Positions 1-28,272 of a stretch of 28,861 nt of DNA are shown here, in pieces. Position 1 is the stretch's first letter. The number at the start of each line of letters is the position of its first letter. The notes beneath the pieces were generated by a model. It did no database searches, had not been told where the DNA came from, and worked only from the letters and a program-made list of their open reading frames with translations. The DNA comes from an uncultured Myxococcales bacterium (GTDB lineage Bacteria > Myxococcota_A > Polyangia > Haliangiales > Haliangiaceae), in contig CALKVT010000188.1 in NCBI GenBank assembly GCA_938004865.1, forward strand, positions 1 to 28,861. Direction: 5' to 3'. A program made the position numbers and the translations under genes.

Positions 1-1
1 G

Positions 2-1375
2 ACGATCCAGAGCCTGGCCTACACGCGCAACGCCAAGGGCCTCATCACCGCGGTGTCCAGCCCGGTCGCGCACGAGGGCTGGAGCTACGGATACGACGAG
101 CTCGATCGACTGATCTCGGCGAGCAACACGTCGAGCTCGGGGGAGAGCCAGACGCTCGCGTACGACGCGATCGGCAACATCACCTACAACTCGCGGCGCG
201 GCACGTACGTCTACGGCTCGTCGCGCCCGCACGCGGTGACGGCGGCGGGCGCGAGCAGCTACACCTACGACGCGGCCGGGCTCATGACGTCGGGCGCGGG
301 GCGGACGCTGGGCTGGGACGGCGACAACCGGCTGGTGACGGTCAGCGGCGGCGGCGTGAACCTGACGTACACGTACGACGCCGACGGCGCGCGCATCCAG
401 GAGGTCGAGAACGGGATCACGCGGCGCTACTTCGGCGACAACTTCGAGCTCCAGGTCGGCGGCGCGACGCGGAAGTACGTGATGGTCGCCGACGTGCTCG
501 TCGCGCGCCGCGACGCGGGCACGGCCTACTGGGTGCACACCGATCACCTGGGCTCGATCCAGGCCGAGACCGACGCCACCGGCGGCGTGGCGCACCGCAA
601 GACCTACCGTCCGTACGGCGAGGTGCTGTCGTCGACGGGCACGCTCCAGGACGAGCCGCGCGGCTACACCGGCCAGCGCCACGACGCCTCCGGCCTCCTC
701 TTCCTGCACAACCGCTCCTACGATCCGGCGCTCGGGCGCTTCGTGTCGCCGGACCTCGTGATCGACGGCGAGGACACGGTCGGCCTCAACCGCTACGCGT
801 ACTGCAGCAACAACCCGGTCACGCGCACCGACGTCGAGGGCACGGACGACGAGCCCGAGCCCGACAAGGACAAGCAGCCGGAGAAGAAGGCCAACGGCAA
901 CTGGGTGTCGCGCGGCGTGGACGCGGCGAAGAAGAACGGCGAGTTCGCCGACGCGCCGCCCACGATCGGCGAGCCCGGCCAGGACAAGGTCCGCTACGAC
1001 TTCTACCAGAAGCCGGTGGCGGTCGCGGGCTCGCACTTCAAGGCGGTGGTCACCGACGAGTCGGGCAAGAACGTCGGCACGTACAGCCTCGCCGGCTGGG
1101 ACGCGAAGTACAACGACCCCAACCCAGGCGACGACAAGTACCGGCACGCCGGCACGATCTACAAGGACAGGGAGAGCCTCAAGAGCTTCAACGACGCGTA
1201 CATGAACATCGCCGACGGCAACCGCTACGCCGTCGGTGACTCGAACGCGGCGATGGACCACGCGATCAAGGCGGTCGGCGAGACCAAGGGCCTCTTCACG
1301 CTGTCGAACCCGCACGGGGTGCCGGCGGCGGCCTACGGCTACAACAACTTCGACTACCAGGAGCCGCAGCCGTGA
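2..1375 (+). CDS. RHS/YD-repeat polymorphic toxin, C-terminal fragment (5' end lies outside the window) with a variable C-terminal toxin domain
   Basis: The frame is open from nt 2. YD repeats are present (YDAIGNITY, YTYDAAGLMTS, TYTYDADGARIQ). The RHS core ending is present (HTDHLGSIQAETDATG...YRPYGE...RSYDPALGRFVSPD...NRYAYCSNNPV). A ~175-aa Lys/Asp-rich tail follows the core, as in polymorphic toxins. The ORF track starts at 53 with GTG, but the frame continues upstream. Confidence 0.85.
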   Translation, partial: TIQSLAYTRNAKGLITAVSSPVAHEGWSYGYDELDRLISASNTSSSGESQTLAYDAIGNITYNSRRGTYVYGSSRPHAVTAAGASSYTYDAAGLMTSGAGRTLGWDGDNRLVTVSGGGVNLTYTYDADGARIQEVENGITRRYFGDNFELQVGGATRKYVMVADVLVARRDAGTAYWVHTDHLGSIQAETDATGGVAHRKTYRPYGEVLSSTGTLQDEPRGYTGQRHDASGLLFLHNRSYDPALGRFVSPDLVIDGEDTVGLNRYAYCSNNPVTRTDVEGTDDEPEPDKDKQPEKKANGNWVSRGVDAAKKNGEFADAPPTIGEPGQDKVRYDFYQKPVAVAGSHFKAVVTDESGKNVGTYSLAGWDAKYNDPNPGDDKYRHAGTIYKDRESLKSFNDAYMNIADGNRYAVGDSNAAMDHAIKAVGETKGLFTLSNPHGVPAAAYGYNNFDYQEPQP

Positions 1376-5353: not shown

Positions 5354-7012
5354 ATGGCCGAAACCGTGCTGGGGCGCTACGAGCTGCTGCGGCTGCTCGG
5401 GCGAGGCGGCATGGCCGACGTCTACCTCGCGCGCCGGCGCGTCGCCGGGCTGGAGAAGCGGCTGGTCATCAAGCGGGTGCGGCCGCAGCAGGTCGGCGAC
5501 ACCACGTTCCTCGAGCTGTTCGTGCGCGAGGCGCGGCTGTCGATGACGCTCAACCACCAGAACATCGTCCCGGTCTTCGATTTCGGGCGGGTGGGCGACG
5601 CGGCCTTCCTGGCCATGGAGTTCGTCGAGGGCCGCGACCTGGGCGCGACCCTGCGCAAGGCCGAGGCGCCGGTGCCGCCGATGCTCGCGGCGTTCATCGC
5701 CGCCGAGTGCTGCCTCGCGCTCGAGCACGCGCACCAGCGGCTCGGGCCCGACGGCCAGCCGCTCGGCGTCGTGCACCGCGACGTCACCCCGCGCAACGTG
5801 CTCCTGTCGTGGGCCGGCGAGGTCAAGCTGACCGACTTCGGCGTCGCCGCGCTCGCCGGCGATCCCAGCGGCGAGGTGCGCGGCACGATCGCGTACATGG
5901 CGCCCGAGCAGGCGCGCTACGAGCCGACCGACGCGCGCGCCGACCTCTACGCGCTCGGCCTCGTGCTCTGGGAGATGCTGGCGGGCGAGCGCGTGCGGAA
6001 GGCCAGGGACAAGAGCGCGCTCCTCGAGCACACGCGGCTCGGCGTCCTGCCCCCGCCGCCCGAGGGACCGCCCGCGTTGCTCGAGGTGATCGCGCGCGCG
6101 ACCCAGTACGAGGTGGGTGAGCGCTACGCCGACGCGGCCGCGATGCACGCGGCCCTCGATCGCTACCTCGTCGAGGCGCGCGCGGCGGCACCGGGGCCGA
6201 CGCCGGCGCGGCAGCTCGCCGACTGGCTCGAGAGGGTGTGGGGCGACGAGGCCGGCAAGATCGAGGGCCAGCCGCTGGAGCCGGGGACGACGGCGCCGGC
6301 CGACGACCTGGATCCGGCGACGATGCGTTCGCTCGCCGAGACCGCCGGCGAGCTGCCGTCGGTGGTCACGCCGAACGCGACCGCGACCGCCGCCGGGGGA
6401 ACGGCCGCGGCGGCGGCAGCAGCCTCGGCCGCCGCCGCGGCGCCCATCGTGCCCGTCGCTCCGGCTCCTCCCGCCGCGTCACCGCCGCCGTCCGCGCGCC
6501 GCTGGCTGCCGGCGGCCGCGCTCGTCGCGGCGGCCGCGCTCGTCGCCGTCTACGTCGTCGCCACGCGTGCGCCGTCGAGTACGCGCGTGGCCATCGTCGA
6601 CGACGCGGCGGCGCCGGCCGTCGACGCGGCGGCGCCGGACGCGTCGAGCGCGGACGCCCCGTCCGACGACGGGTTCGCCGACGCCGCCGTCGTGAACCAC
6701 GACGCGACGGCGCCGGTCGACGCCCGCGTCGTCGTGACGCCGCCCGATGGACGCGGCGCGCCGGTCGACGCCGGCGCCGACGCCACGCCGCCGCCGGTCC
6801 TGCGCAAGGTCACGATCGGCGCGACGCCGTGGGCCCACTTCACCGTCGACGACGATCCGACGATCCGCGAGACGCCGGAGACGATCCAGCTCGCGCCCGG
6901 GCGGCACCGCATCCACTTCACCAACGATCAGCTCGGCGTGAGTCGCACGGTCACGATCGAGGTCCCGGCCGATCGCGACCTCAAGCACGTCGAGGCGCTG
7001 GCCGAGCCGTAG
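5354..7012 (+). CDS. Eukaryotic-like Ser/Thr protein kinase (Hanks type) with a single TM helix and an extracytoplasmic PEGA-like domain
   Basis: Glycine loop GRGGMADVY. VAIK-like LVIKRV. Catalytic loop HRDVTPRN. DFG motif. Activation loop TIAYMAPE. A TM helix (LPAAALVAAAALVAVYVVA) follows an Ala/Pro-rich linker. The C-terminal PEGA-like domain is VTIGATPWAHFTVDDD...GRHRIHFT...TVTIEV. Confidence 0.9.
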   Translation: MAETVLGRYELLRLLGRGGMADVYLARRRVAGLEKRLVIKRVRPQQVGDTTFLELFVREARLSMTLNHQNIVPVFDFGRVGDAAFLAMEFVEGRDLGATLRKAEAPVPPMLAAFIAAECCLALEHAHQRLGPDGQPLGVVHRDVTPRNVLLSWAGEVKLTDFGVAALAGDPSGEVRGTIAYMAPEQARYEPTDARADLYALGLVLWEMLAGERVRKARDKSALLEHTRLGVLPPPPEGPPALLEVIARATQYEVGERYADAAAMHAALDRYLVEARAAAPGPTPARQLADWLERVWGDEAGKIEGQPLEPGTTAPADDLDPATMRSLAETAGELPSVVTPNATATAAGGTAAAAAAASAAAAAPIVPVAPAPPAASPPPSARRWLPAAALVAAAALVAVYVVATRAPSSTRVAIVDDAAAPAVDAAAPDASSADAPSDDGFADAAVVNHDATAPVDARVVVTPPDGRGAPVDAGADATPPPVLRKVTIGATPWAHFTVDDDPTIRETPETIQLAPGRHRIHFTNDQLGVSRTVTIEVPADRDLKHVEALAEP

Positions 7013-7031
7013 CCCGGCCGCACAGGGCGCC

Positions 7032-7790
7032 TCAGCGCGTCAACGACGCGTGCAGCAGGAGGGCGCCGGTGACGAGCAGGAGCCCGGCGACCGCGCCGCG
7101 GAAGGCGCGCTCGCTGACCCGCACGTGCACGAGCTCGCCGAGCACCAGGCCGGCGGCCATCGCCGGGACGAGCTGCAGCGAGCCGCGGAGCGACGCCAGG
7201 TCGACGTGGCCGCGCACGCTCAGGCGCGCGATCACGATGACGTTCAGCACGAACCACATGACCGCGAGCGTCGAGCGCAGGGTCGTCTTCGACGGGAGCA
7301 TGCGCGCGATCACCGCGACCGCGAGCGGGCCGCCGGTCGCGAACAGGCCGTGGACCACGCCCGCGCCGAGCAGCAAGCCGCGCTGCGCCGAGGGCGGCAG
7401 CCCACCCATGAGCGTCGTCCCGTGCGCCGCGCGCACCTGCGCCAGGATCTCGAGCACCGCCACGACGATCACGAGCCCGGCGAACAGGGCGCGCGCGCCG
7501 TCGGCCTCGATCACCCACGCCAGCGCGGTGCCGCCGGCGAGCCCGAGCAGGATCATCGGCAGGATCGACACACCGAGCGCGCGCCACGCGATCGCGCGCC
7601 GCCCGCGCAGGGCGAGCGCGAGCGAGAGCCCGAGGTTGAGCGGCAGGAACCACGCGAGCAGCGGCTCGATACCGAACCAGCGCGCGCCGAGCGAGAGCGC
7701 GAGCACCGTGCCGCCGAAGCCGGCGACCGCCTCGACGAACGCGCCGGCGCCGAGCACCGCCGAGAGCAGCAACAGATCGTCGGTGGTCAT
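7032..7790 (-). CDS. TauE/SafE (DUF81) family anion/sulfite exporter membrane protein
   Basis: It is about 250 aa with 7-8 hydrophobic helices. The N-terminal GAGAFVEAVAGFGGTVLALSL and a second repeat half GGPLAVAVI are typical of the TauE/SafE architecture. Confidence 0.75.
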   Translation of the reverse strand: MTTDDLLLLSAVLGAGAFVEAVAGFGGTVLALSLGARWFGIEPLLAWFLPLNLGLSLALALRGRRAIAWRALGVSILPMILLGLAGGTALAWVIEADGARALFAGLVIVVAVLEILAQVRAAHGTTLMGGLPPSAQRGLLLGAGVVHGLFATGGPLAVAVIARMLPSKTTLRSTLAVMWFVLNVIVIARLSVRGHVDLASLRGSLQLVPAMAAGLVLGELVHVRVSERAFRGAVAGLLLVTGALLLHASLTR

Positions 7791-7805
7791 GTCGGGGTGG
7801 TCATG

Positions 7806-8570
7806 TCACGACAGCGCCGTGCCCTCGCGCTCGTGCTCGGCGACGATCGCCCGCGTGAAGCGCCACGTCCCGCCCGCGCCGCGCACCAGCCGAAGCGCCG
7901 CAAGCTCGATGCGGCGGCCGCCGACCTGGCCGGGGAGGTCGTGATCGAGCCGGACGCACGCGACCATGCCCGGCTTGCCCTCCCACGCCGCCACGTCGCG
8001 CGGCAACGCCGGCAGCGCCTCACGCGCGGCGTCGAGCCCCGGCGTCAGCTCGGCCTCGGGCACGCCCCACTCGCCGACCCCGGTCATGCGCGTCATCCAC
8101 TCGAGCACGCGCATGCACTCCTCGTCGGGCAGCGCCGAGAGGATCGCCGGCCCGAGATCGACCGACGGCACGCTCGACGTGTCGGAGAGCGGCGCCAGCG
8201 TGTCGATACCGGCGGCGCGGCGGAACCGGCGCTGCAGCGCGCCCTGCCAGTCCGGATCGTCGAGCATCGGTACGTCGAAGGCGCGCACGCGCTCGAGGTG
8301 CACGGTCGTCTCCGGTCCGCGCACCGGCGGGATCACGAACGGCACGTCGTCGAGCACCGCGAACGCAGCCCAGCGATAGAGGTAGCGCATGGGCCACGCG
8401 CCGACCGCGACCAGGGTGATCGGCGGACGCGCCGGCACCAGGCGCACCAGCTGCGCGGCGACGTCGTACGCCTTGCCGAGCGCGGTGCCGTCGTCGAACA
8501 CCCGCGCCCACAGCTCCTCCCAGCCGCGATCCTTCACCGTGCCGCGCGCACGGCGTCGTTGCAGCACCAT
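7806..8570 (-). CDS. Hypothetical protein (no recognisable domain)
   Basis: ATG start at 8570, and a GTG 18 nt further upstream is also possible. It lies 38 nt after the CxxCH lipoprotein gene and 15 nt before TauE on the same strand. The composition is globular. The long Arg-rich N-terminal extension in the ORF track is an artifact. Confidence 0.5.
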   Translation of the reverse strand: MVLQRRRARGTVKDRGWEELWARVFDDGTALGKAYDVAAQLVRLVPARPPITLVAVGAWPMRYLYRWAAFAVLDDVPFVIPPVRGPETTVHLERVRAFDVPMLDDPDWQGALQRRFRRAAGIDTLAPLSDTSSVPSVDLGPAILSALPDEECMRVLEWMTRMTGVGEWGVPEAELTPGLDAAREALPALPRDVAAWEGKPGMVACVRLDHDLPGQVGGRRIELAALRLVRGAGGTWRFTRAIVAEHEREGTALS

Positions 8571-8608
8571 CTCGGCGAGCGAGGACACCCCGCCGCGATG
8601 GTAGCCGA

Positions 8609-9157
8609 TCAGGGCAGGTGGATGCGGCCGTTGGTCGCCGCCTGGTGGCAGCTGTTGCAGTCGCCGGTCATCGGCGTCGCCATCATCAGGCGCGTGTCGG
8701 GGCACCGGCTCGCCTTCACGCGCAGCGGCATGGCGAGCGCCTGCCCGGTGTAGAAGTTGCCGTTCGACGCCGTCACCAGCCGGACCGTCACGTCGTTGGC
8801 GTCGGTGACCGTGACGGTCGCGCCGGCGATCGGCGTGCCGCCCTGCGAGCTCGCGTAGAGGGTGCCGGCCACGGTCCAGCGCGGCGCCACGCCGCTGCCG
8901 TTGTGGCAGCCCAGACAGACGAGGCCGGCGTTGTGGTTGCCGCTGGGCAGCATCGACGACACCTCGTCGCACGATCCGTCGCCGCCGCCGCCCCCGCCGT
9001 TCCCGGCGGCGTCCGTCCCGCCGCCGCCGCCGGCCGCGTCGACGCCACCACCGCCGCCCGGATCGTCCGATCCCTCCACGGCGCAGGCGGCCACGAGCGG
9101 GCAGACGAAGGCGACGGCGAAGATCGATGTCAGGCGCATGGGCGAGGTGTTTCGCAA
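8609..9157 (-). CDS. Lipoprotein with two CxxCH heme-c binding motifs flanking a CarboxypepD_reg-like beta-sandwich (putative dihaem c-type cytochrome)
   Basis: The lipoprotein signal is MRLTSIFAVAFVCPLVAAC. A Gly-rich linker follows (GGGGGVDAAGGGGGTDAAGNGGGGGG). The heme motifs are CLGCH and CNSCH. Between them sits GTPIAGATVTVTDANDVTVRLVTASNGNFY, which resembles a carboxypeptidase regulatory-like domain. Confidence 0.6.
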   Translation of the reverse strand: MRNTSPMRLTSIFAVAFVCPLVAACAVEGSDDPGGGGGVDAAGGGGGTDAAGNGGGGGGDGSCDEVSSMLPSGNHNAGLVCLGCHNGSGVAPRWTVAGTLYASSQGGTPIAGATVTVTDANDVTVRLVTASNGNFYTGQALAMPLRVKASRCPDTRLMMATPMTGDCNSCHQAATNGRIHLP

Positions 9158-9288
9158 GCGTCGTGCCCCCTGGGAGTCCCAGGCGATTCCGGGTGATCCA
9201 CCCGCTCCCGCGCGCGGCTGTCGGTCGCCACCGACAGTCCCGTGGGGCAGGGGTCACCACGCCCCGGCCGGGAGCTAAGCTGCGACGC

Positions 9289-9957
9289 ATGGGGATGGCC
9301 CGCGATAGCTACCTGGTTGCCCGCGCCGTCGTGCGCGTGCTCGGCGACTCGACGATGACGCACGAGATCCACCGGGTCGAGGAGATCACGGGGCGCCCGG
9401 CGTACCGACGCCTGCTCGCCGAGCTGCGCGACGATCCCGACGGCCAGCGCCTCCTGCGCGAGCAGCCGGAGCTGTCGAGCGAGCTCGTCGACTACGACGC
9501 GCTCCGGCGGATGCCGGAGACGACGCTCGGCGGCGCCTACGTACGCCACCTCGACGGCAACGCCATCACCGCCGACTACCAGGCGGCGCGCACGCGCCAC
9601 GTCGACGATCCGGACATGGCGTACCTCATGCGCCGCTTCCGCCAGACCCACGACGTGTGGCACGCGCTCCTCGGGCTCGGCATCACCGGGCACGAGGAGG
9701 TCGTCATCCACGCCTTCTCGTGGGGACAGATGCGGCTGCCGGTCTCGGCGATGGTCGTCGCGTTCGGCTCGATGAAGCACATCGTCCTCGAGAAGCGCTG
9801 GGGCACGCTGCGCCACTCGCTACGCGAGGCGTACGAGGCCGGACGCGACGCCGCGCCGCTCATCAAGGTGGTGTGGGAGGACCTCTGGGCCGAGCCCATC
9901 GACCGTGTGCGCGCGCGCTACCACGTGCGCACGCTCGAACGCCGCTGGCTCGACTGA
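9289..9957 (+). CDS. Coq4 family protein (ubiquinone biosynthesis COQ4 homologue)
   Basis: The Coq4 zinc-ligand motif HDxxH-x11-E is present as HDVWHALLGLGITGHEE. The size is about 220 aa. ATG at 9289, and ATG at 9295 is an alternative start. Confidence 0.7.
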   Translation: MGMARDSYLVARAVVRVLGDSTMTHEIHRVEEITGRPAYRRLLAELRDDPDGQRLLREQPELSSELVDYDALRRMPETTLGGAYVRHLDGNAITADYQAARTRHVDDPDMAYLMRRFRQTHDVWHALLGLGITGHEEVVIHAFSWGQMRLPVSAMVVAFGSMKHIVLEKRWGTLRHSLREAYEAGRDAAPLIKVVWEDLWAEPIDRVRARYHVRTLERRWLD

Positions 9958-10028: not shown

Positions 10029-10445
10029 ATGTCCACCGTGGAGATCAACCTGGAGAACTTCCAGGAGACCATCGAGAAGAGCGGCATCGTGCTCCTCGAC
10101 TTCTGGGCCGAGTGGTGCGGTCCGTGCAAGATGTTCGCGCCCGTCTTCGAGGAAGCGTCGGCCAAGTACGGCGACGTCACCTTCGGCAAGATCGACACGG
10201 AGGCGCAGCAGGAGCTGGCCGCGATGGCCAACATCCAGGCGATCCCCACGTTGATGCTGTTCCGCGACGGCGTCCTCCTCTTCCGCGAGAGCGGCGCCCT
10301 GCCGGCGGCCGCGCTCGATCAGCTCGTGTCGAAGGCCAAGGAGCTCGACATGGAGCAGGTGAAGAAGGAGATCGCGGCCCACGAGGCGGCGCACGAGCAC
10401 GGCCCGGGCTGCAACCACGATCACGACCACGACCACGAGCACTGA
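10029..10445 (+). CDS. Thioredoxin with a C-terminal His-rich tail
   Basis: The WCGPC active site sits in a classic thioredoxin fold sequence (VLLDFWAEWCGPCKMFAPVFEE...IPTLMLF). The C-terminus is HEAAHEHGPGCNHDHDHDHEH. There is an SD-like aaagcagg upstream of the ATG. Confidence 0.9.
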   Translation: MSTVEINLENFQETIEKSGIVLLDFWAEWCGPCKMFAPVFEEASAKYGDVTFGKIDTEAQQELAAMANIQAIPTLMLFRDGVLLFRESGALPAAALDQLVSKAKELDMEQVKKEIAAHEAAHEHGPGCNHDHDHDHEH

Positions 10446-13415: not shown

Positions 13416-16400
13416 ATGGCCAAGAAGAACGCCAAGAGCGCGAAGAGCGACTTCGAGACCGCCGCCGCCAACATCACGAGCGCACCGCATTCCACCGCGG
13501 CCTGGGACGAGATCGAGGAGCTCGCGCGCGAGCACGACAAGCCCGACGAGGTCATCACCCTCTACAACGAGATCCTGAAGAAGGGGCTCGACCCGCAGGT
13601 CGTCGAGATGATCGGCGACCGCGCCGGCGCCTTCTGTGACGAGTGGTTCGGCGACGAGCCCAAGGTCGCCGAGGGCATCCTGGGCAAGGTCCTCGAGCTG
13701 GCGCCGCAGTCGGAGTCGGCGCTGGGCCGGCTGTCGGTGCTCTACACCCAGAACGAGCGCTGGGCCGACCTCCTGCGGCTCTACGACCGCGCGCTCACCG
13801 CGGTGAAGGATCAGGGGCGGCGCATCAAGCTGCTCCGCGAGGCGGCGCAGATCGCCAAGGACGTCGCCAACCAGCCCGAGAAGGCGATCGGGTACCTGCA
13901 GCGCCTGCTCCCGCTCACCGCCGACGACGTGCAGCTCGGGCAGTCGCTGGAGCGCCTGCTCGAGCGCTACGAGCGCTGGGCCGATCTGATCGAGCTGTGG
14001 GAGGGCCGGCTCGATCGCCAGAGCAAGCTCGAGCGCGAGAAGAGCCGGGCGCGCATCTCGGCCTGCTACCTGGACAACCTGCAGGACTCGGCCAAGGCGC
14101 TGGCGGCGGTGCGCCCGCTCCTCGCCGTCGCCGACGATGACAGGGAAGCGACCGCGCTGCTCGAGCGCATCATCGAGGCCCAGCACACCCAGGAGAAGGA
14201 CCGCGAGGCCGCGCTCGACGTCCTGCGCGCGCACTACGACGCCACCAGCCGTCCGCGCGAGGTGATCCGCGTGCTCGAGCGCGTGATCGAGCTGTTCCCG
14301 GACTCGCGCAAGGCGCTGCGCGAGGAGGCCGGCGCGCGACTCGCCGAGCTCGACGACGACCGCGCCGCCATGGACCACTACGCCGAGCTCCTCGCGCTGT
14401 CGCCGGAGTCGTCGGTGACGCAGGAGAAGCTGCGCCAGCTCGCGCAGCGCTCGAACAACTTCGCGCGCTACGCCCAGGGCGTCGCCGCCGCGGCCGAGCA
14501 CGCGATCATGCCCGGGCGCAAGGTCGAGCTCCTCTCGGAGGCCGCGCGCACCAAGCTCGATCTGCTCGACGACGCCAACGGCGCGATCGAGCTCTACCAG
14601 CGCGCGCTCGAGCTGCCCGGTGCGGGCGCGAAGGAGCAGCTCCCGGTGTGCCGGCGGCTCTCCGAGCTGTACCTGCGCGTCGACCGGCCGCGCGAGCGGT
14701 TCGCCATCCTCGAGCGCCTGGCCGGGCTCGAGCCCGCCGACGCCACCCGCCGCGCCGTCATCGGCGAGGCCGCGCGCCTGGCGGAGACCCTGGGCGAGAC
14801 CGACAAGGCGCTCTCGCTGTGGCGGCAGCGCATCGAGCGCGATCCCGACGATCTCGCCGCGATCGACTCGTCGATCCTCCTGCTCGAGACGTCGCAGCGC
14901 TGGCCGGAGCTGGTCGCCGCGCTCGACATGCGCTCGCAGAAGAACGTGTCGACGGCGCAGAGGCGCACCGACCTCACGCGGATCGCGGTCGTGTACCGCG
15001 ACCACATCAAGGACGCCGAGAAGGCGATCGCCGCGTGGCAGCGGGTGCAGCAGGCGTTCGGCGACGACGCCGAGACGGTCGGCGCGCTGACCGAGCTGCT
15101 CTCCGAGGTCTCGCGCTGGAGCGAGCTCGCCGAGCTGCTCGAGCGGGCGAGCGGCAAGGACGTGGCGCGCACGACGCGGCGGCTCAACAAGCTCGGCGAG
15201 GCGCTGGGCACGCACCTCGGCGAGCCGGGGCGCGCGCTGACCGCGTATCGCGCGGCGCTCGCGATCGATCCGGTGAACGACGAGGCCCGCGCCGGCCTGC
15301 TCACGCTGCTCGATTCGCCGGCGCACCGCCGCGCCGCCGCCGACGCGCTCGCGGTGAGCTACCGCGAGAACCAGGACTGGGCCGGCTTCCTCAAGCTCCT
15401 CCCGTCGCGCCTCGCCGACGCGCCCGACGACCGCACCCGGCTCGCGCTGCTGCGCGAGGCCGCGTACATCCAGCTCAACAACACCGGCGATCCGGCCGGC
15501 GCGCTCGACAGCCTGGCGCGCGCGTTCCCGCTCGCGCCGCGCGACGGCGTGATGGAGGGACAGATCCTCGATCTCGCGCAGCAGACCGGCAAGCTGCCGG
15601 TGGCCGATCAGGCGCTCGCCGCGGCCATCGACGCGCTCGCCGAGGATCCGGCCGAGCAGTCGCGGCTGCGCCTGGTGCGCGCCGAGCTGCTCGAGAAGAA
15701 GATCGGCGACGAGGCCGGCGCCCTGGCCGAGTACCTGATCGTCTTCCGCCGCGATCACGCGAACACCACCGCCGCGACCGGCGTCGTGTGGCTGGCCCCC
15801 AGGAAGGGGCAGTGGGCCGACGCGGCGCAGGCGGTGCTCGGCTTCGCTGCCGCCAAGGAGCGGCTCGACGACGGGCTCTTCGGTCACTACGCCAAGGCCG
15901 GCGAGGAGGCGCTCGAGGCGGCGGTGACCGCGCTCGAGGAGGCCGCGCCCAAGGCCGGGCTCCCGCCCGCGGTCGCGGCGCAGGTGTGGTCGCTCATCGG
16001 CGTGTGGCAGCGCGATCGCCGCGGCGACAAGGCCGCCGCGGTCACCGCCTTCAACAAGTCGCTCACCGCCGGCGGTGATCGCGCGGACACCTTGCGCGCC
16101 GTCGCCGAGCTCTTGCGGCCCGGGGGGCCGAGCGCGTCGCTCCTCGACGTCCTGCGCCGGCTATCCGATGCCGATCCGCGTGATCTCGACGTGCTCGTCG
16201 AGGCCGCGGACACCGCGAGCCGTCAGGGGGATCGCGACGCCTCGGTCACGATCCTCGGCCAGGTGCTCGGCCGCGCCACCGGCGCGTGGCGCGGGTCGTC
16301 GTCGGTCCAGTCGTCGCGCCCACCGGAGGCGGTCGTGCGCTGGGCGATCGACGGGCTCGTCGATCTCCACCGCTCCGCCGGCCGGCCCCGCGTCGCCGTC

Positions 16401-19400
16401 GACCTGCTCGTCGAGTCGGCGCGCCTGCCGTTCGACCCGGAGACGCGGCGCGATCTGCGCATGCGCGCCGCCGCGATGGCGTCGAGCGAGCTGCACGACA
16501 ACGCCGCCGCGATCGACATGTACCGCGGCGTGCTCGCCGACAGCCCCGGCGATCTCGACATCATCGCGCGCCTCGGCGCGCTGCTCGAGACCGAGAAGCG
16601 CTACGCCGAGCTCCTCGGCCTGCGCCACACCCAGCTCGGCCTCGAGTCCGACCCGGCGCGCCGGCTCGAGCTCCGCCTCGACATCGCCCGCCTGGTCGGG
16701 GTCGTCGAGGAGACCGGCGGCCGCTACGAGTCGCTGATCGCCAACCTCGCCGATCAGCCCGGCCACGACGCGTCGATCGACGCGGCCCACGCCTTCCTCG
16801 GCGGACGCGGTCAGCACAAGGCGCTCGCCGACCTGCTCGAGGAGCAGGCCGCCAAGGTCGAGGGCGCCGGCGAGGCCGCGCGCGCGGCCAAGCTGTGGGC
16901 GCGGTTCGCCGCGGTCACCGAGAAGGAAACGCGCGAGACCGATCGCGCGATCATGGGCCACAAGCGCGTGGTCAAGCTCGCGCCGACCCAGGACTCGCTG
17001 CGGGCGCTCGCGCGCCTCCAGCTCGAGCGCAAGCAGCCGGCGCAGGCGGTGCCCTGGTTCGAGAGCCTGCTCTCGACGGTGCAGGGCGCCGAGCGGCTGG
17101 CCGTGCTCGACCAGCTCGCGCGCGCGCACATCGCGGCCGAGCAGGAGGACCGCGCGATCGCGACGATCGAGGCCGCGCTCGACGACCGCGAGCCCGCGCT
17201 CGACCTGCGCCTCCTCCTCGCCGACCTCTACCGCAAGGGCGAGCAGTGGGAGCCGCTGGCGCGGCACCTGACGCGCTCGCTGGCGCTGTTCGGCGACGAG
17301 CGCGGGCGCGAGCTCGCGCGCGAGGCCGCGTCGATCTACACCGACAAGCTCGACGCCCCGGCCAAGGCCATCCCCGCGCTGGAGAAGGCGCTCGCGCTCG
17401 ATCCGACCGACAAGGAGATGCGCGCGAACCTGGCGATCGGCCTGCGCGTCGCCGGCCGCCTGTCCGAGGCGCGCGCCATCCTCACCGAGCTCATCGAGGC
17501 CTTCGGTCGTCGCCGCGCGCCCGAGCGCGCGCAGCTCCACGTCGAGCTGGCCAAGGTCGCCCACGCCGAGGGCAAGAACGACGAGGCGCTCTCCGAGATG
17601 GAGGCGGCGTCCAAGATGGACGTCCACAACACGCGCATCCAGCGCGAGCTCGCCGAGCTGTGCCGCGCCGCCGGTCAGGTCGACAAGGCGGAGCGCACGT
17701 ACCGCGCGCTGCTCCTCGTCGTGCGCCGGCAGCCGCCGGGTGATGACGAGACCGCGGTCGGCCAGAGCGAGGTGCTCTTCGAGCTCTCGCGCCTCGCCGC
17801 CGGTCACGGCGAGACCAGCCAGGCCAAGGAGCTCCTGGAGAGCGCGATCGACGCCGCGGTGCAATCCGACGGCGAGGTCCGCCGCCTGCGCCGCAGCCTG
17901 ATCGCACACGGCGAGCCGGAGACCTTGCTCCGCGTGCTCGAGCTGCGGCTCGGCGCGACCAGCGAGGCGGCGAGCCAGGCGCGGCTCTACGGCGACATGG
18001 CCGACGTGCTCGACGGCTCGCTCGGGCGAACGAGCGACGCGCTCGACGCCGCGATCAAGGCGTTCAACCTGGCGCCGTCGCGTCTGGACCTGCTCGAGAA
18101 GGCGCGGCAGCTCGCCCGGAAGTCGGGCGGCACCAAGAAGTTCGTCGAGGCGGTCGAGGCGGTCGTCGAGCGGCTGCGCCGCAAGGACGATCCGCCGCTG
18201 GTCGCGTCGGTCCTCCTCAAGGCCGGCGAGGCGCTCGAGAACGACGCCGACGATCTGGCCGGTGCGGCGGCGATGTACCGCCGCGTCGAGATGCTCGGCG
18301 AGCGGCTGGCCGAGGCGTACTACGCGCAGGCCCGCGTCGCGGGCGCGCTCGGCGATGACGAGCAGCAGGCGCGGGCGCTCGACAACATGCTCCAGCTCGC
18401 CGGCGGCGCCGATGGCGATGCCTCTCCGGCGCAGGTCGACGCGCTCTACCGTCTCTCCGAGATCTTCATCGCCAACCCGGCGCGCCGCGCGCAGGGCATC
18501 GAGCTGATCGAGCGCGCCTTCGCGGCCGAGCCGCGCTGGGCTCAGGCCGGACGCGTCCTCCGCGGCGCGTCGAGCGCCGATCCGGGCGATGCGCGGGTGA
18601 TGGCGCTCTACGAGCGCGTCGCGCGCAACGGCGGCGACAACGAGCTCCTGCTCGACTTCCTCGAGAAGCGGGCGCAGCAGCCGGGCGCGACGTCGGCGCA
18701 GGTCCGCGAGGCCGTCGACCTCGCGGTCGAGACCGGTCAGGAGCAGCGCGCCGAGAGCCTGCTCCAGCGCGCGGTGCAGGCCGCGCGCGACTCCGCCGAC
18801 GGCGTCGGCGGGGCGGTGTGGGCGGTCCTCTCGCTCACCGACCGCCGGGTCGCGGCGGGCGATCTCGCGTCGGCGCGCGAGCTGGTCTACGAGATCATCG
18901 GTGTCGCCGAGCCCGCGGACATGGATCCGCTGATCGGGCGCGTGGCCGCGCGCGCCGCGGCGGACAAGGCGACGCAGCCGCTCGCCGCCGAGATGTACGA
19001 GCTCCTGCGCGAGCGCGCGCCCTCGGAGCGGACGGTGTGGGAGCCGCTGGTCGCGCTCTACCGCGACATGGGCGACGGCGACCGGCTGGCGAGCGTCATC
19101 TCGTCGACGCTGCCGACCTTGACCGATCCGCAGGAGCGCAACTCGCTCCGTCGCGCCCACGCCACGTACCTCATCGAGACGCTCGACCGTCCGCACGACG
19201 CCGCCGACGTCCTGCGCGACGCGCTGCAGGACGACCCCGACGATCTCGCGGCCGCCGGCGCGCTCGAGCGGACGCTGCGCGCGCTCGGCGACGACGACGG
19301 GCTCGCCGAGTTCCTGTGGGCGCGCTTCGACGACGCCGTCCGCCGCGGCAACCGCGAGAGCACGCTCGACGTCGCCGCGCGCCTCGGTCCGCTGGTCGAG

Positions 19401-21200
19401 TCGACCGGTGGTAACGCGGCGCGGGTGTATCGGGCCGCGCTCGAGATCGCTCCCGACGACCGCGAGCTGCTGCGCCGTGTCGTCAGCGGGATCACGCCCG
19501 AGGACGATCCGCGCGAGTCGGCGGCGCTCATGGAGCGCCTGCTCGCCGTCGAGACGCCCGAGGCGGCGCCGGCCCTGTGCTGGAGCCTGGCGTCGGCGTA
19601 CGAGCAGGCGGAGGACTGGGCCGGCGTGCAGCGCACGCTCGCCGCCGCGCACAAGGCGGCGCCCGGGGACCAGGCGATCCACGACCGGCTCGAGCAGTTC
19701 TACCGCGACAGCCAGCAGTGGAAGGAGCTGGCCGAGCTCATGACCAGCGACGCGGAGCGCGCGACCGACGCCGCCGTCGCGGTCGACCGGCTGCGCGAGG
19801 CGTCGGCGGTCTACACCGGCTTCCTCGGGCAGCCGCTGCTCGCCGCCGAGGCCCTGCGCGCGGCGCGGGCGCGTCAGCCCGAAGCGCCGGCCCTGTCGGC
19901 GGAGCTGGCGGCGGCCCTGGCCGCGGCCGGCGATCACCGCGGCGCCGTGACGTCGCTCGGCGAGGCCCTCGATCCGTGGTCCGGCGACAACGGCGAGAGC
20001 CAGCCGGCGCCGGTGCAGGGCGCCGCGCGGGTCGATCTCCTGCTCCTGCGCGCGAGCCTGCGCCAGCAGCTCGGCGAGGAGGACACGGCGGTCATCGATC
20101 TCGACGACGCGTACAAGCTCGACGGGCCGCGCGCGGCGGCCGCCCTCTCCGAGGGGCTCGAGCGCATGCGCGCGCGGGCCGAGGCCGCAGGGGACATGGC
20201 GAGCGAGCGCACCGCGACCTTGCGGCTCGCCCAGCTCCTCGGCGAGCACGGCGACCTCGAGCGGGCGCGCGATCTGCTCGTCATGTGGATCGAGCGGATG
20301 CCGAGCGATCCCGACCCGCTCTACATCCTGCGCGACATGGACGCCGGCATCGAGCACTGGGACGGCGTGATCGCGGCGTGCACGCGGCTCGCGTACATCG
20401 TCGAGGGCGAGGCGCAGGTGCAGGCGGCGCTCGACGTCGCCGACGCGTCGGCGCGCGCCGGCAAGCCCGGCGACGCGATCGGCGTGCTCGAGATGGTGCA
20501 CCAGGTGCAGCCGGGCGCGGAGACGATCCGCGTCAAGCTGCGCGAGCAATACGAGGCCGCGGGGGCGCACGGTCAGCTCGCCGCGATCCTCATGACCGAC
20601 GCCGAGCACGCGGCCGACGCCGACGCCAAGTTCGCCGCGTACAAGCGCGCCGCCGAGCTGTACCTGGCGGCGGGCGACGCGGCGGCGGCGTCGGTGCCGG
20701 CGGGCAAGGCGGCGGAGCTCGCGCCCGACGATCACCAGACCGCGATGCTGCACGTCGACATCCTCATCGGCTCCGGCCGCACGGAGGAGGCGGCCAGTGC
20801 GCTCGAGACGGCGATCGCGGCGCAGAAGAAGCGCACGCCCGAGCTCGCGACCATGCAGCAGCGCATGGGCCGGGTCGCCGGCATGCTCGGGGATCGCGAC
20901 GGTCAGCTCGGATGGCTGAAGAAGGCGTTCGACGTCGATCGCAAGAACGGCGAGATCGCCGCCGAGCTGGCGCAGCTCGCGACCGAGACCGGCGACTACG
21001 AGCTCGCGCTCAAGCCGCTGCGCGCGATCACGCTGATGGACAACCCGCTGCCGATCACGCGGCCGATGGCGCTCCTCTGGGAGGCCAAGATCGAGCACGC
21101 GCGCGGCAACCGCGCCAAGGCGGAGCTCTGGGCCAAGAAGGCGCTGCGCGAGGACCCTCAGTTCCACGAGGCGCAGCAGTTCCTGGACGAGCTGGCCTGA
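13416..21200 (+). CDS. Giant (2594 aa) all-alpha TPR-repeat protein with no signal peptide; probable cytoplasmic scaffold
   Basis: It is a single uninterrupted 7.8 kb ORF with strong GC3 bias and an SD (gaggga) 5 nt upstream of the ATG. TPR signature positions W4-L7-G8-Y11 recur throughout ([90 protein letters not shown]). Many A-x-x-Y/AL-x-L-D-P motifs are present. I see no catalytic motif. Confidence 0.85.
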
Positions 21201-25995: not shown

Positions 25996-26036
25996 CCGCG
26001 CGGCGCGCGGCGCCGAGGCCGGCTGGATGTAGCGCC

Positions 26037-26507
26037 TCACCCCTGGCCTGCGAGCAAGCTCTCCACCGCATGCAGGCTCTCCGCGTCGCGGGCCAGCTCC
26101 TTGCGCGCGAACGCCTCGATGGCCTTTTCATGGGCGTAGACATAGGCAAAGAACGCCAGCTCCGAGCCTTCGGCATGCGTCTTCAGGCGCAGGAACTTCT
26201 TCTGGAACGGCACCGTGGCATCAGCCACGAGCTTCATGGCCACACGCCAGGGCATCAACCCGAGGACGGCGCCCTCCACATGGCCTTTCGTCGCCCAGCC
26301 TCTCGGCTCGATCACCTGCTGATGGGTGCTCTCCATGTAGTCCAGGTAGCGACGTAGCGTCTGCGCTTCCAGCGCTTCGAGCGCCAGCCACTTCCGCTTG
26401 CGCGCAGGATCCCGGGTCACGCGGGCGGCGGTGGCGAACGCCGCCCTGCCATAGACCTCCGATTCATGGATGTGCTGCAGGTCTGCCTGATACTCGGGGT
26501 AGCTCAT
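26037..26507 (-). CDS. Hypothetical protein (156 aa, helical, no recognised family)
   Basis: ATG start with the SD gagggag. It is the first gene of a lower-GC segment. It overlaps the 3' end of the alpha/beta hydrolase gene by 44 nt. Confidence 0.5.
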   Translation of the reverse strand: MSYPEYQADLQHIHESEVYGRAAFATAARVTRDPARKRKWLALEALEAQTLRRYLDYMESTHQQVIEPRGWATKGHVEGAVLGLMPWRVAMKLVADATVPFQKKFLRLKTHAEGSELAFFAYVYAHEKAIEAFARKELARDAESLHAVESLLAGQG

Positions 26508-27441
26508 CGCTCGTCTCCCTCTGCGAGATTTCTGCCCGGCTGCCGCCATCGCCATGGGCGAGCTGGCGCAAGGCAAGCTCCAGGGCACTGAAGTAGGCCG
26601 CGGTGTCTTCCATGAACGGCATGTGGCCGACGCCGCGAAACACCACGGTTCTGGCCGTGGGCACCTCGCCGGCGATCAGCAGCGACTGGGTCGCCGGCAC
26701 CACGGGATCGTGCGTGCCGGCGAAGACGAAACACGGAACGCCGATGTCACGTAGCCGATGGCCGATCTGAAGCTTGCCGATGCCGTTGAACAGCCAGAAC
26801 AGCGCCGACGGATCCTGCCCGCGGGTATCGGCGCGGATGTTGTCCAGCATGCGCTGGCTGAGCGGACTGGCACGAAACGCCGCGCGGTCGTGGGCCAGCA
26901 GCGTCGCGAACACGCGCTGCACGAGCTTGCTGTGTCGGGCGATCAGGATGTTCAGCGTGAACAATGGCCTCGCCCACTCGCCGAGGCCGGCCAGCTTCAC
27001 CAGCTGGCCTTCGATCCCCGTCCACTGTCCGCTGTGAAAGCCCGCCACGCTCACGACGCCCACGACCGTGGGTGCGCGGTGAATGGCCAGGTTCAAGGCG
27101 CAGAAACCGCCCGTGGAGTGCCCCACCACGATGGCTCGCCTGCCGTCCAGCAGCTGTTCCAGCGCGCCGTTCATCACGCGGTAGAACCACGGCTCGTCCA
27201 CCTGCCCCGGACCGAAGTCCGCCGGCACGGTCGAGGGATGATGCGCGGGCAGGCTCAGGGCATACCAGGGCCGGTTCTCCCGGAGCTCGGGTGGTACGGC
27301 ATCGAGCCAGAAGCTCACGGAGGCCAGCACGCCATGGATGAACACCACCGCGGGCTCCTCGGGCCTGGCCACGTGTTCGTTCACCGCCAGGTAGGCCAGG
27401 CGGTGGCCTTCGATGTCGACGAAACCTCTCCTCACGTTCAT
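26464..27441 (-). CDS. Alpha/beta-hydrolase fold protein
   Basis: The nucleophile elbow is GHSTGG. The oxyanion region is HGVLAS (HG motif). The C-terminal catalytic pair is HDP...GHMPF. ATG start at MNVRRGF. The GC content is lower than in flanking DNA. Confidence 0.8.
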   Translation of the reverse strand: MNVRRGFVDIEGHRLAYLAVNEHVARPEEPAVVFIHGVLASVSFWLDAVPPELRENRPWYALSLPAHHPSTVPADFGPGQVDEPWFYRVMNGALEQLLDGRRAIVVGHSTGGFCALNLAIHRAPTVVGVVSVAGFHSGQWTGIEGQLVKLAGLGEWARPLFTLNILIARHSKLVQRVFATLLAHDRAAFRASPLSQRMLDNIRADTRGQDPSALFWLFNGIGKLQIGHRLRDIGVPCFVFAGTHDPVVPATQSLLIAGEVPTARTVVFRGVGHMPFMEDTAAYFSALELALRQLAHGDGGSRAEISQRETSDELPRVSGRPAAHP

Positions 27442-27513
27442 GCGGCCACCTGCAACAAGCCTTCCTGGCAAGCAGCCTAGCGATGAACCCCCGGGACGTA
27501 TTGAACGAAAGAG

Positions 27514-28272
27514 CTACTGTCGGCGGGCATGCTGCCAGGCGTGCAGCGCATCGAGGTAGGTGAGGCCGAACGACTCCGAGAAGGCGCGGCTCATGTGAGC
27601 CAGGTCGCTGAACCCGGCCGCCATGGCGGCGCTGGTGGGGAGCGCCCCGTCCAGCAACGCATCCATGGCCATCCTCAGCTTGAGCCACTTCTTGTAGCTC
27701 CGGAACGGGATACCGGATCGCTCCACGAACCAGTGGGAGAAGCGGCTCGGCGAGAGGTCCACCAGGCGGGCCAGGGCGTTCCGATCCACCTCCTTGCCGT
27801 CGCGCAGCTGGACCGCGAGCTCGCGCGCGATCCTGCGGAACCGGCGATCCTCCACGGAGGACGGAGGGGATGGAGGGGTGACGCACAGCAGCTCAGAGCT
27901 CAGCAGCGGACTCAGCTCCGTGGAGGCGGACAGGCCGGCGAGCTCGGCGGGCAGCTGATCCTCGGACAGCGCCGCCCACCCCGCGGTCGAGCCAGCACCC
28001 AGCGTCTCGAGCCGCGACGCCGACAGCGGATCGGCGTAGATCGAGCAGACGAAGCCGGAGAACAGCTGATGCCTCACCTTGGAGGACAGATACACCGCTC
28101 TCGAGCTGCGCCGCCCCGAATCCTCCGCTTCGAACTCGACCGCTCCCTCGACAGCGATGGTCAGCTGCGACGCCCAGTGGCTGTGGGGCTTGTTGGGCCC
28201 CACATGGCCTCGGAAGATCGCGACGCTGTCGGAAAAGACGATGTCTCCTCGCCAGTCCGCTTTCATCGTCAC
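27514..28272 (-). CDS. AraC-family transcriptional regulator
   Basis: The C-terminal AraC HTH region is LVDLSPSRFSHWFVERSGIPFRSYKKWLKLRMAMDALL...SDLAHMSRAFSESFG. The N-terminal half is a sensing domain. GTG start at 28272, with ATG at 28266 as an alternative. Confidence 0.85.
   Translation of the reverse strand: MTMKADWRGDIVFSDSVAIFRGHVGPNKPHSHWASQLTIAVEGAVEFEAEDSGRRSSRAVYLSSKVRHQLFSGFVCSIYADPLSASRLETLGAGSTAGWAALSEDQLPAELAGLSASTELSPLLSSELLCVTPPSPPSSVEDRRFRRIARELAVQLRDGKEVDRNALARLVDLSPSRFSHWFVERSGIPFRSYKKWLKLRMAMDALLDGALPTSAAMAAGFSDLAHMSRAFSESFGLTYLDALHAWQHARRQ

Follow-up and report, generated by a model that had tools for sequence, protein, structure and literature searches.

The window analysed here, a 28,861-nucleotide stretch of contig CALKVT010000188.1 from an uncultured Myxococcales bacterium, carries on its minus strand, at 7032-9139, three co-directional genes in the order lipoprotein, middle gene and TauE/TSUP permease. 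Very probably, the lipoprotein is a cytochrome that carries two haems on an unusual beta-sandwich. The locus is accordingly described below as that of a putative c-type cytochrome on a novel scaffold: its architecture is unusual, its family is large and unannotated, and the three-gene operon hypothesis fails. The overall picture favoured on balance, with moderate confidence, is of a tethered dihaem electron carrier of an undescribed cytochrome family that sits beside an unrelated permease pair.

The lipoprotein and its CxxCH/beta-sandwich/CxxCH module

The gene for the putative tethered dihaem c-type cytochrome (8609..9139; this and all features of the protein lie on the minus strand) encodes 176 residues. 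Its product begins with a signal peptide, read from sequence, that ends in the lipobox LVAAC (9083..9139); Cys19 is the predicted lipidation site, and this cysteine is kept in at least 90% of 111 homologues. A low-complexity Gly/Asp/Ala linker follows at residues 20-56 (8972..9082) and presumably acts as a flexible tether, since homologous linkers differ in length and sequence yet are always rich in D, A, G and P. The first haem-c attachment motif, CLGCH (C75-L-G-C78-H79; 8903..8917), and the second, CNSCH (C161-N-S-C164-H165; 8645..8659), flank a predicted transthyretin/CarboxypepD_reg-like beta-sandwich at residues ~87-151 (8687..8881) that contains the invariant elements GT (92-93), GNF (127-129) and P138. 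Two further residues, His69 (8933..8935) and Met152 (8684..8686), are candidate distal axial haem ligands.

Structural modelling gives this arrangement a definite shape. An AlphaFold2 (AF2) model built with a 111-sequence alignment reaches a predicted local distance difference test score (pLDDT) above 90 over residues 60-176 and falls below 50 at residues 22-53 of the linker. In this model the CxxCH motifs, each at a short helical turn, are separated by eight beta-strands. A Foldseek search of the model against the PDB returned no match at E<=1e-3, and the family profile found nothing significant among PDB sequences (best E=0.2). Within the PDB, which this fold comparison covered, no solved haem protein appears to resemble the module. 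The initial annotation had described a lipoprotein with a tether whose CxxCH pair brackets a beta-sandwich, an unusual architecture for a haem domain. Both parts of that description agree with the lipobox, with the linker that is disordered in the model, and with the lack of any PDB or cytochrome-model match.

Profile searches likewise leave the module outside existing families. Pfam CarboxypepD_reg (PF13620) aligns with residues 95-150 at E=1.1e-05 and 26.1 bits, under its gathering cutoff of 32.3 bits, and what sets the module apart is a CxxCH-bearing extension at each end; to our knowledge the CarboxypepD_reg family does not carry haem. Weak Paired_CXXCH_1 and cytochrome c7 motif matches occur at the second CxxCH, where the multihaem models PF09699 (16.7 bits against a cutoff of 20.6), TIGR01905 (16.7 against 25.2) and PF14522 (15.3 against 24.8) all score too low and span just 10-13 residues. 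When the window protein and seven paralogues were compared with the Pfam and NCBIfam cytochrome models, all matches stayed below cutoff and covered 10-20 residues round a motif, and no Pfam or NCBIfam model covers the CxxCH/beta-sandwich/CxxCH module. Literature searches found no description of it. The CDD family 'MXAN_0977_Heme2' (PMC11495043) was considered as a candidate, but no such NCBIfam model matched the window protein or the seven paralogues.

Conservation of the two CxxCH motifs goes well past what chance would produce. A search of 5.8 billion protein clusters at E<=1e-3 recovered at least 410 homologues, nearly all of 160-220 residues and none with a name other than 'hypothetical'. 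When 30 and 111 of these homologues are aligned, both CxxCH motifs prove invariant, together with C57, H69, C146 and the GT...NGNF...P core, while M152 is kept in at least 90%. A separate genome scan, limited to one genome per species, gave 167 confirmed relatives, from which 80 loci were retained and 95 module copies extracted and aligned. Across these copies C75, C78, H79, C164 and H165 are conserved at 100% and C161 and M152 at 99%, so that the first motif is complete in every copy and the second is conserved at 99-100%. Non-conservation of the CxxCH motifs among homologues would have counted against a haem protein, and the alignments show the opposite. In several homologues CxxxxCH, a recognised variant of the haem-c attachment motif, replaces CxxCH at either site.

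Column 69 of the module alignment behaves differently, holding Met in 84 of the 95 copies and His in 10, which are the small lipoproteins, the window protein included; His69 is invariant within this subfamily. C57 and C146 are confined to the same subfamily and probably form a disulfide that would fasten the N-terminal extension to the beta-sandwich. Among the paralogues, longer proteins with three to five CxxCH motifs are in the majority, and their extra motifs belong to class-I cytochrome c domains placed N-terminal to the C-terminal module (PF13442, E=1e-17; PF00034, E=6e-13 to 8e-16).

All 80 retained loci come from Myxococcota or from unclassified 'delta/proteobacterium' metagenome-assembled genomes (MAGs). 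They include Kofleriaceae, Haliangiales, Polyangia, Nannocystis, Myxococcaceae, Archangiaceae and the cultured Nannocystis exedens DSM 71, and at least 10 assemblies give two or three loci each. Judged from these searches, the module family is large, undescribed and Myxococcota-restricted. Myxobacteria carry many uncharacterised exported haem-motif proteins, and this family, found in at least 410 metagenome sequences and 167 matches in species-representative genomes, often with several members per genome, is one that has neither a Pfam/NCBIfam model nor a solved structural analogue.

Haem binding and the proposed role

That the lipoprotein binds haem is considered quite likely. The alternation of His and Met at column 69, together with the near-invariant M152, leaves exactly two conserved iron-ligating residues for two haems. 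This number of candidate ligands matches the need of two six-coordinate c-type haems, although which residue serves which haem is something we infer. The window lipoprotein would accordingly carry one bis-His and one His/Met haem, and most paralogues two His/Met haems. Attachment of haem c requires protein export, and the signal peptide and conserved lipobox cysteine, as read from the sequence, are what an exported c-type cytochrome should have.

In the proposed mechanism, the lipoprotein would be exported, lipid-anchored at Cys19 and held on a disordered tether of ~35 residues. Two covalent c-type haems, at C75xxC78H79 and C161xxC164H165, would lie at either end of the transthyretin-like beta-sandwich, with His69 and Met152 as their sixth ligands. 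The protein may then shuttle electrons within the cell envelope, mobile yet tethered to the membrane, and would be the minimal, single-module member of its family, most paralogues placing one to three class-I cytochrome c domains before the module.

In its proposed function the protein resembles known membrane-tethered carrier cytochromes. Rhodobacter cytochrome c_y, Paracoccus c552 and the Gram-positive lipoprotein c551 are, like the window protein, anchored to the membrane at the N-terminus, and in them a long, flexible linker of low complexity leads to a small haem-c domain with a presumed role as a shuttle at the membrane surface. Unlike the lipoprotein, which has two CxxCH motifs on a beta-sandwich and matches no class-I model, these cytochromes hold one haem in a helical class-I fold; the larger paralogues do add class-I domains before the module, which the window lipoprotein does not. 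Haem on a beta-sandwich is also known, from cytochrome f and from the cytochrome/DOMON domains of the cellobiose dehydrogenase type, the latter with Met/His ligation. These proteins and the lipoprotein would have in common an all-beta haem carrier rather than a helical bundle, but no detectable similarity joins them. Such beta-sandwich cytochrome domains have been reviewed (PMC6472588). A further parallel is PgcA of Geobacter sulfurreducens, whose 'hemes on a string' consist of three monohaem helical domains on tethers that serve extracellular Fe(III) oxide reduction (PMC10570954, PMC5732950). The lipoprotein would resemble PgcA as an exported c-type cytochrome, one in which repetitive, flexible tethers join haem domains; the two differ in fold and have no sequence family in common, the nanowire and c7 models scoring under cutoff.

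Among the alternatives to an electron carrier, the one that survives best, though it is unlikely, is a dihaem enzyme, either peroxidase-like or a small-molecule oxidoreductase. Its catalytic haem, of low potential or with an exchangeable ligand, would owe its character to the subfamily-specific His69 and be supplied by the His/Met haem. Replacement of Met by His at column 69 and the subfamily-specific Cys57/Cys146 pair do mark the small lipoproteins as a functionally distinct subgroup, and dihaem pairs of high and low potential are typical of bacterial cytochrome c peroxidases. However, Pfam, NCBIfam and PDB comparisons reveal no similarity to known dihaem enzyme families, no conserved partner or substrate-related neighbour accompanies the gene, and a module of ~120 residues would probably leave little space for a substrate pocket.

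Still less probable is that the CxxCH motifs carry no haem, the ends of the beta-sandwich being stapled instead by a redox-active dithiol pair or a Cys4 (+ His) metal site, which would make the protein a thiol-redox or metal-binding lipoprotein. A CxxC...CxxC pattern is also that of zinc-ribbon and rubredoxin-like sites, the below-cutoff cytochrome matches cover the motifs alone, and the fold has no counterpart among solved cytochromes; but a Cys4 site does not need the histidine that follows each CxxC in every module copy. Also against this reading are the CxxxxCH variants, the exchange of His and Met at column 69, a Met152 conserved at 99%, fusion of the module to genuine cytochrome c domains, and the export on which haem-c attachment depends.

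With the dihaem electron carrier as the preferred reading, a wider proposal can be made, for now tentatively. The CxxCH/beta-sandwich/CxxCH module may represent a dihaem c-type cytochrome of a class that is new in structure and found in Myxococcota alone. It would either stand free as a tethered lipoprotein or close a chain of class-I domains at the C-terminal end, with a His/Met axial switch that tunes a low-potential subfamily. It may serve an undescribed envelope redox process in these aerobic predators, an idea alongside which the ECF sigma/FecR genes that adjoin some paralogues can be cited. If haem binding proves true, the beta-sandwich dihaem scaffold joins the short list of non-helical c-type cytochromes and supplies a natural His/Met ligand-switch series for studies of potential tuning.

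The middle gene, the permease and the three-gene arrangement

The window has a G+C content of ~74%; this region is identical to contigs from bioreactor-sludge and Joint Genome Institute (JGI) metagenomes, ERZ936775 and JGI 3300006417 among them, and Kofleriaceae MAGs (Myxococcota) emerged from the genome scan as the nearest genome-resolved relatives. G+C at third codon positions runs from 0.935 to 0.98 across the three frames (0.955 in the lipoprotein gene, 0.935 in the middle gene). In comparison with orthologues, the ratio of nonsynonymous to synonymous substitution rates (dN/dS) comes to ~0.3 to 0.45 in the middle gene and in TauE; for the lipoprotein module it is 0.34 against L008 and 0.73 against L089 (L numbers denote homologous loci). 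These values identify all three frames as real coding genes, and the three minus-strand open reading frames of the initial annotation are borne out by public gene calls and coding statistics alike.

Some of the gene boundaries shift. For the lipoprotein, public gene calls and the homologue alignment favour ATG 9139 over the upstream alternative TTG 9157, and on 5 public contigs the ATG is the start given to an identical protein (P0001). The middle gene (7806..8588, minus strand) encodes 260 residues from GTG 8588 or 254 from ATG 8570; the extension from the GTG is conserved in homologues at the protein level and is the start taken by public gene calls. The permease gene (7032..7790, minus strand) encodes 252 residues. 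The gap between lipoprotein and middle gene is 20 nt from the GTG or 38 nt from the ATG, and that between middle gene and TauE is 15 nt. The bounds first given for TauE and the 15-nt gap were retained, while the TTG start of the lipoprotein and the 254-residue middle gene with its 38-nt gap gave way to ATG 9139 and GTG 8588.

Upstream of the lipoprotein gene, the divergent intergenic region that separates it from a Coq4-like gene (9140..9288) is presumed to hold a promoter. A scan of both strands over 6800-9500 detected neither a sigma-70-like promoter nor an intrinsic terminator, although such a scan is uninformative in a myxobacterial genome of 74% GC. In this organism a single transcript probably covers all three genes, by what looks like a local accident of gene order.

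The third gene product is an ordinary member of the TauE/SafE family (TSUP, DUF81, PF01925), as the initial annotation had it: PF01925 matches at E=4.1e-14 with 53.3 bits against a cutoff of 32.6 and covers profile positions 2-236 of 237. Orthologues down to ~51% identity occur in Kofleriaceae MAGs, where the sources name them 'TSUP family transporter' or 'YfcA'. Export of sulfite or sulfoacetate has been shown for only a few TauE/SafE members. The window TauE has no sulfonate pathway gene near it, and no gene of sulfite or sulfonate metabolism occurs anywhere in the window. Its neighbours are a Ser/Thr kinase, Coq4, thioredoxin, DUF1570, CBS and Kelch proteins, and the neighbours of its orthologues are equally unrelated to sulfite or sulfonate.

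The middle protein belongs to no recognisable family, in keeping with the original description: searches of Pfam, NCBIfam and PADLOC gave no match, and PADLOC found no defence system for any of the three genes. The 5.8 billion clusters contain 11 homologues, all at least 68% identical, and a search of 1.84 billion representatives returned just its own cluster and one spurious match. That sole remote match, P0132, was rejected as an artefact of a repeated 40-residue unit. The AF2 model is poor (mean pLDDT 51.6), with the C-terminal ~80 residues alone moderately confident. On the strength of these searches, the middle gene is a near-orphan restricted to this lineage. It overlaps the TauE gene by 1 nt in L087 and L089, which makes these two the sole tight pair among the three genes. 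The middle gene and TauE would form a separate unit, a TSUP permease with a young, lineage-specific, cytoplasmic partner.

How far the lipoprotein belongs with this pair was assessed by tblastn of the middle protein and TauE against fetched loci, spanning 7 kb either side of each lipoprotein homologue in the other 80 loci from species-representative genomes. A middle-gene homologue stands beside the lipoprotein in just 2 of the 80 (L007 and L008). TauE is present in L008, and the L007 contig ends inside the middle gene. The remaining 78 loci lack both partners. The lipoproteins of L007 and L008 are 81% and 75% identical to the window protein, and their flanking Coq4 and thioredoxin genes (in L008 also DUF1570) are syntenic. 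The trio also occurs in L089 and L090, outside the 80-locus set. The L089 lipoprotein is 52% identical, against 73-80% for its neighbours, a drop that fits either rapid divergence or paralogue replacement at this position.

Comparison within one clade, in which Coq4 is ~80% identical, reveals four configurations. The window, L007 (up to its contig end), L008 and L089 have a divergent Coq4 gene followed by the lipoprotein, the middle gene and TauE. L087 keeps the divergent Coq4, middle gene and TauE, with an unrelated 433-residue secreted protein devoid of CxxCH in the lipoprotein's place. L091 has TauE, Coq4 and thioredoxin, and neither lipoprotein nor middle gene, while L092 and L093 carry more distant TauE orthologues (62% and 55% identical) without the other two and in unrelated contexts. 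Orthologues of the small lipoprotein are also found free-standing: after fusA (L004), between peptidase S9 and FGE-sulfatase genes (L094), after a metallophosphatase gene (L095) and, at the P0116 locus, alone in yet another context.

These distributions bear directly on the proposal that the three genes work together as a dedicated redox or detoxification module of the envelope, in which a haem lipoprotein oxidises or reduces an anion, for example sulfite, that TauE moves. The genes do share one strand, with gaps of 15-20 nt and no terminator detected, and L007/L008 and L089/L090 keep the trio, the latter pair despite the divergence of the lipoprotein. However, trio genomes also keep the flanking Coq4 and, save L007 with its contig end, thioredoxin and DUF1570, so the retention of the trio is put down to general synteny. 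The parts are separable in the same clade, where L087 lacks the lipoprotein and L091 both the lipoprotein and the middle gene, TauE orthologues stand alone in L092 and L093, nearly all other homologue loci are without both partners, and the window offers no enzyme that acts on sulfite or sulfonate. The coupling of a haem protein to an anion exporter, as first suggested, is not supported, and the anticipated conservation of the three-gene order is confined to close syntenic relatives and L089/L090, with the parts apart in L087, L091-L095 and L004. A joint module is judged improbable.

It is likely, rather, that no dedicated three-gene function exists, and the adjacency of lipoprotein, middle gene and TauE appears to be a local accident of one small lineage. 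Two functionally independent units would then be co-directional by chance in one Kofleriaceae-like lineage. Some observations weigh against this account of an electron carrier beside an unrelated permease pair: the trio is kept in L089 although the lipoprotein there is so divergent, and the 20- and 15-nt gaps with no detectable terminator make co-transcription probable and a lineage-specific functional link possible. In addition, no cytochrome c maturation or respiratory gene occurs in the 28.9-kb window, and the module family has no characterised member. For annotation in general, the outcome cautions against 'sulfite exporter' operon stories built on adjacency to TauE.

Paralogue neighbourhoods and other genes of the window

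The wider module family shows several features of its own. Tandem paralogues, with two or three module-containing cytochrome genes side by side, occur at L031:4193-7375, L059:4539-7321 and L023:5365-7360, and these direct tandems point to recent local duplication. Nannocystis exedens DSM 71 encodes a single-module lipoprotein (L075:6690-7360) in which the lipobox reads LAAC, the linker is long and rich in Thr, Ser and Gly, and both ligand columns hold Met; a member in a cultured strain makes the family experimentally tractable.

Three-haem paralogues, which combine a class-I cytochrome c domain with the module, are repeatedly adjoined by a gene for an extracytoplasmic function (ECF) sigma factor, at 18 loci, and by one for a FecR-domain protein, at 11. 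Genes for an unannotated protein whose last residue is aromatic, as in outer-membrane barrels (8 loci), and for a Cys-rich repeat protein (7 loci) lie near them too. The loci concerned include L018, L019, L028, L032, L036, L044, L064, L065, L072, L074 and L076, with examples at L065:3268-6417 and L084:8477-9160, and this recurrence suggests a regulated envelope gene cluster around the three-haem subfamily. A YceI-like (PF04264) gene lies within 4 kb of module genes in seven loci (L034, L050, L061, L064, L077, L081 and L084; for example L077:642-1250). Ser/Thr kinases near 13 of 82 loci were set aside as about the chance level for kinase-rich myxobacterial genomes.

Within the window, the plus strand beyond the divergent intergenic region carries a bacterial Coq4-family gene (9289-9957; PF05019, E=4.5e-47) and then a thioredoxin gene (10029-10445). 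This Coq4/thioredoxin pair stands beside TauE in all four related genomes examined, even in L091, where the lipoprotein and middle gene are missing. A Coq4 homologue is not what one would expect in myxobacteria, generally regarded as users of menaquinone.

Several larger features lie further away. A single plus-strand open reading frame at 13416-21200 encodes a giant repeat protein of 2594 residues with faint or weak TPR-type Pfam matches. At the window's start, positions 1-1375 (plus strand) hold the C-terminal part of a 1876-residue SpvB/TcdB_toxin_midN/RHS-repeat protein, an insecticidal-toxin-complex-like polymorphic toxin whose remainder lies beyond the edge of the window. The next gene on the same strand encodes 122 residues and has no Pfam match (L001:15400-15768, ~1372-1740 of the window). 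Near the other end, at 26000-28000, genes for an alpha/beta hydrolase and an AraC-type helix-turn-helix (HTH) regulator lie in a stretch where the G+C content is down to 0.665-0.68; elsewhere in the window it is 0.69-0.78.

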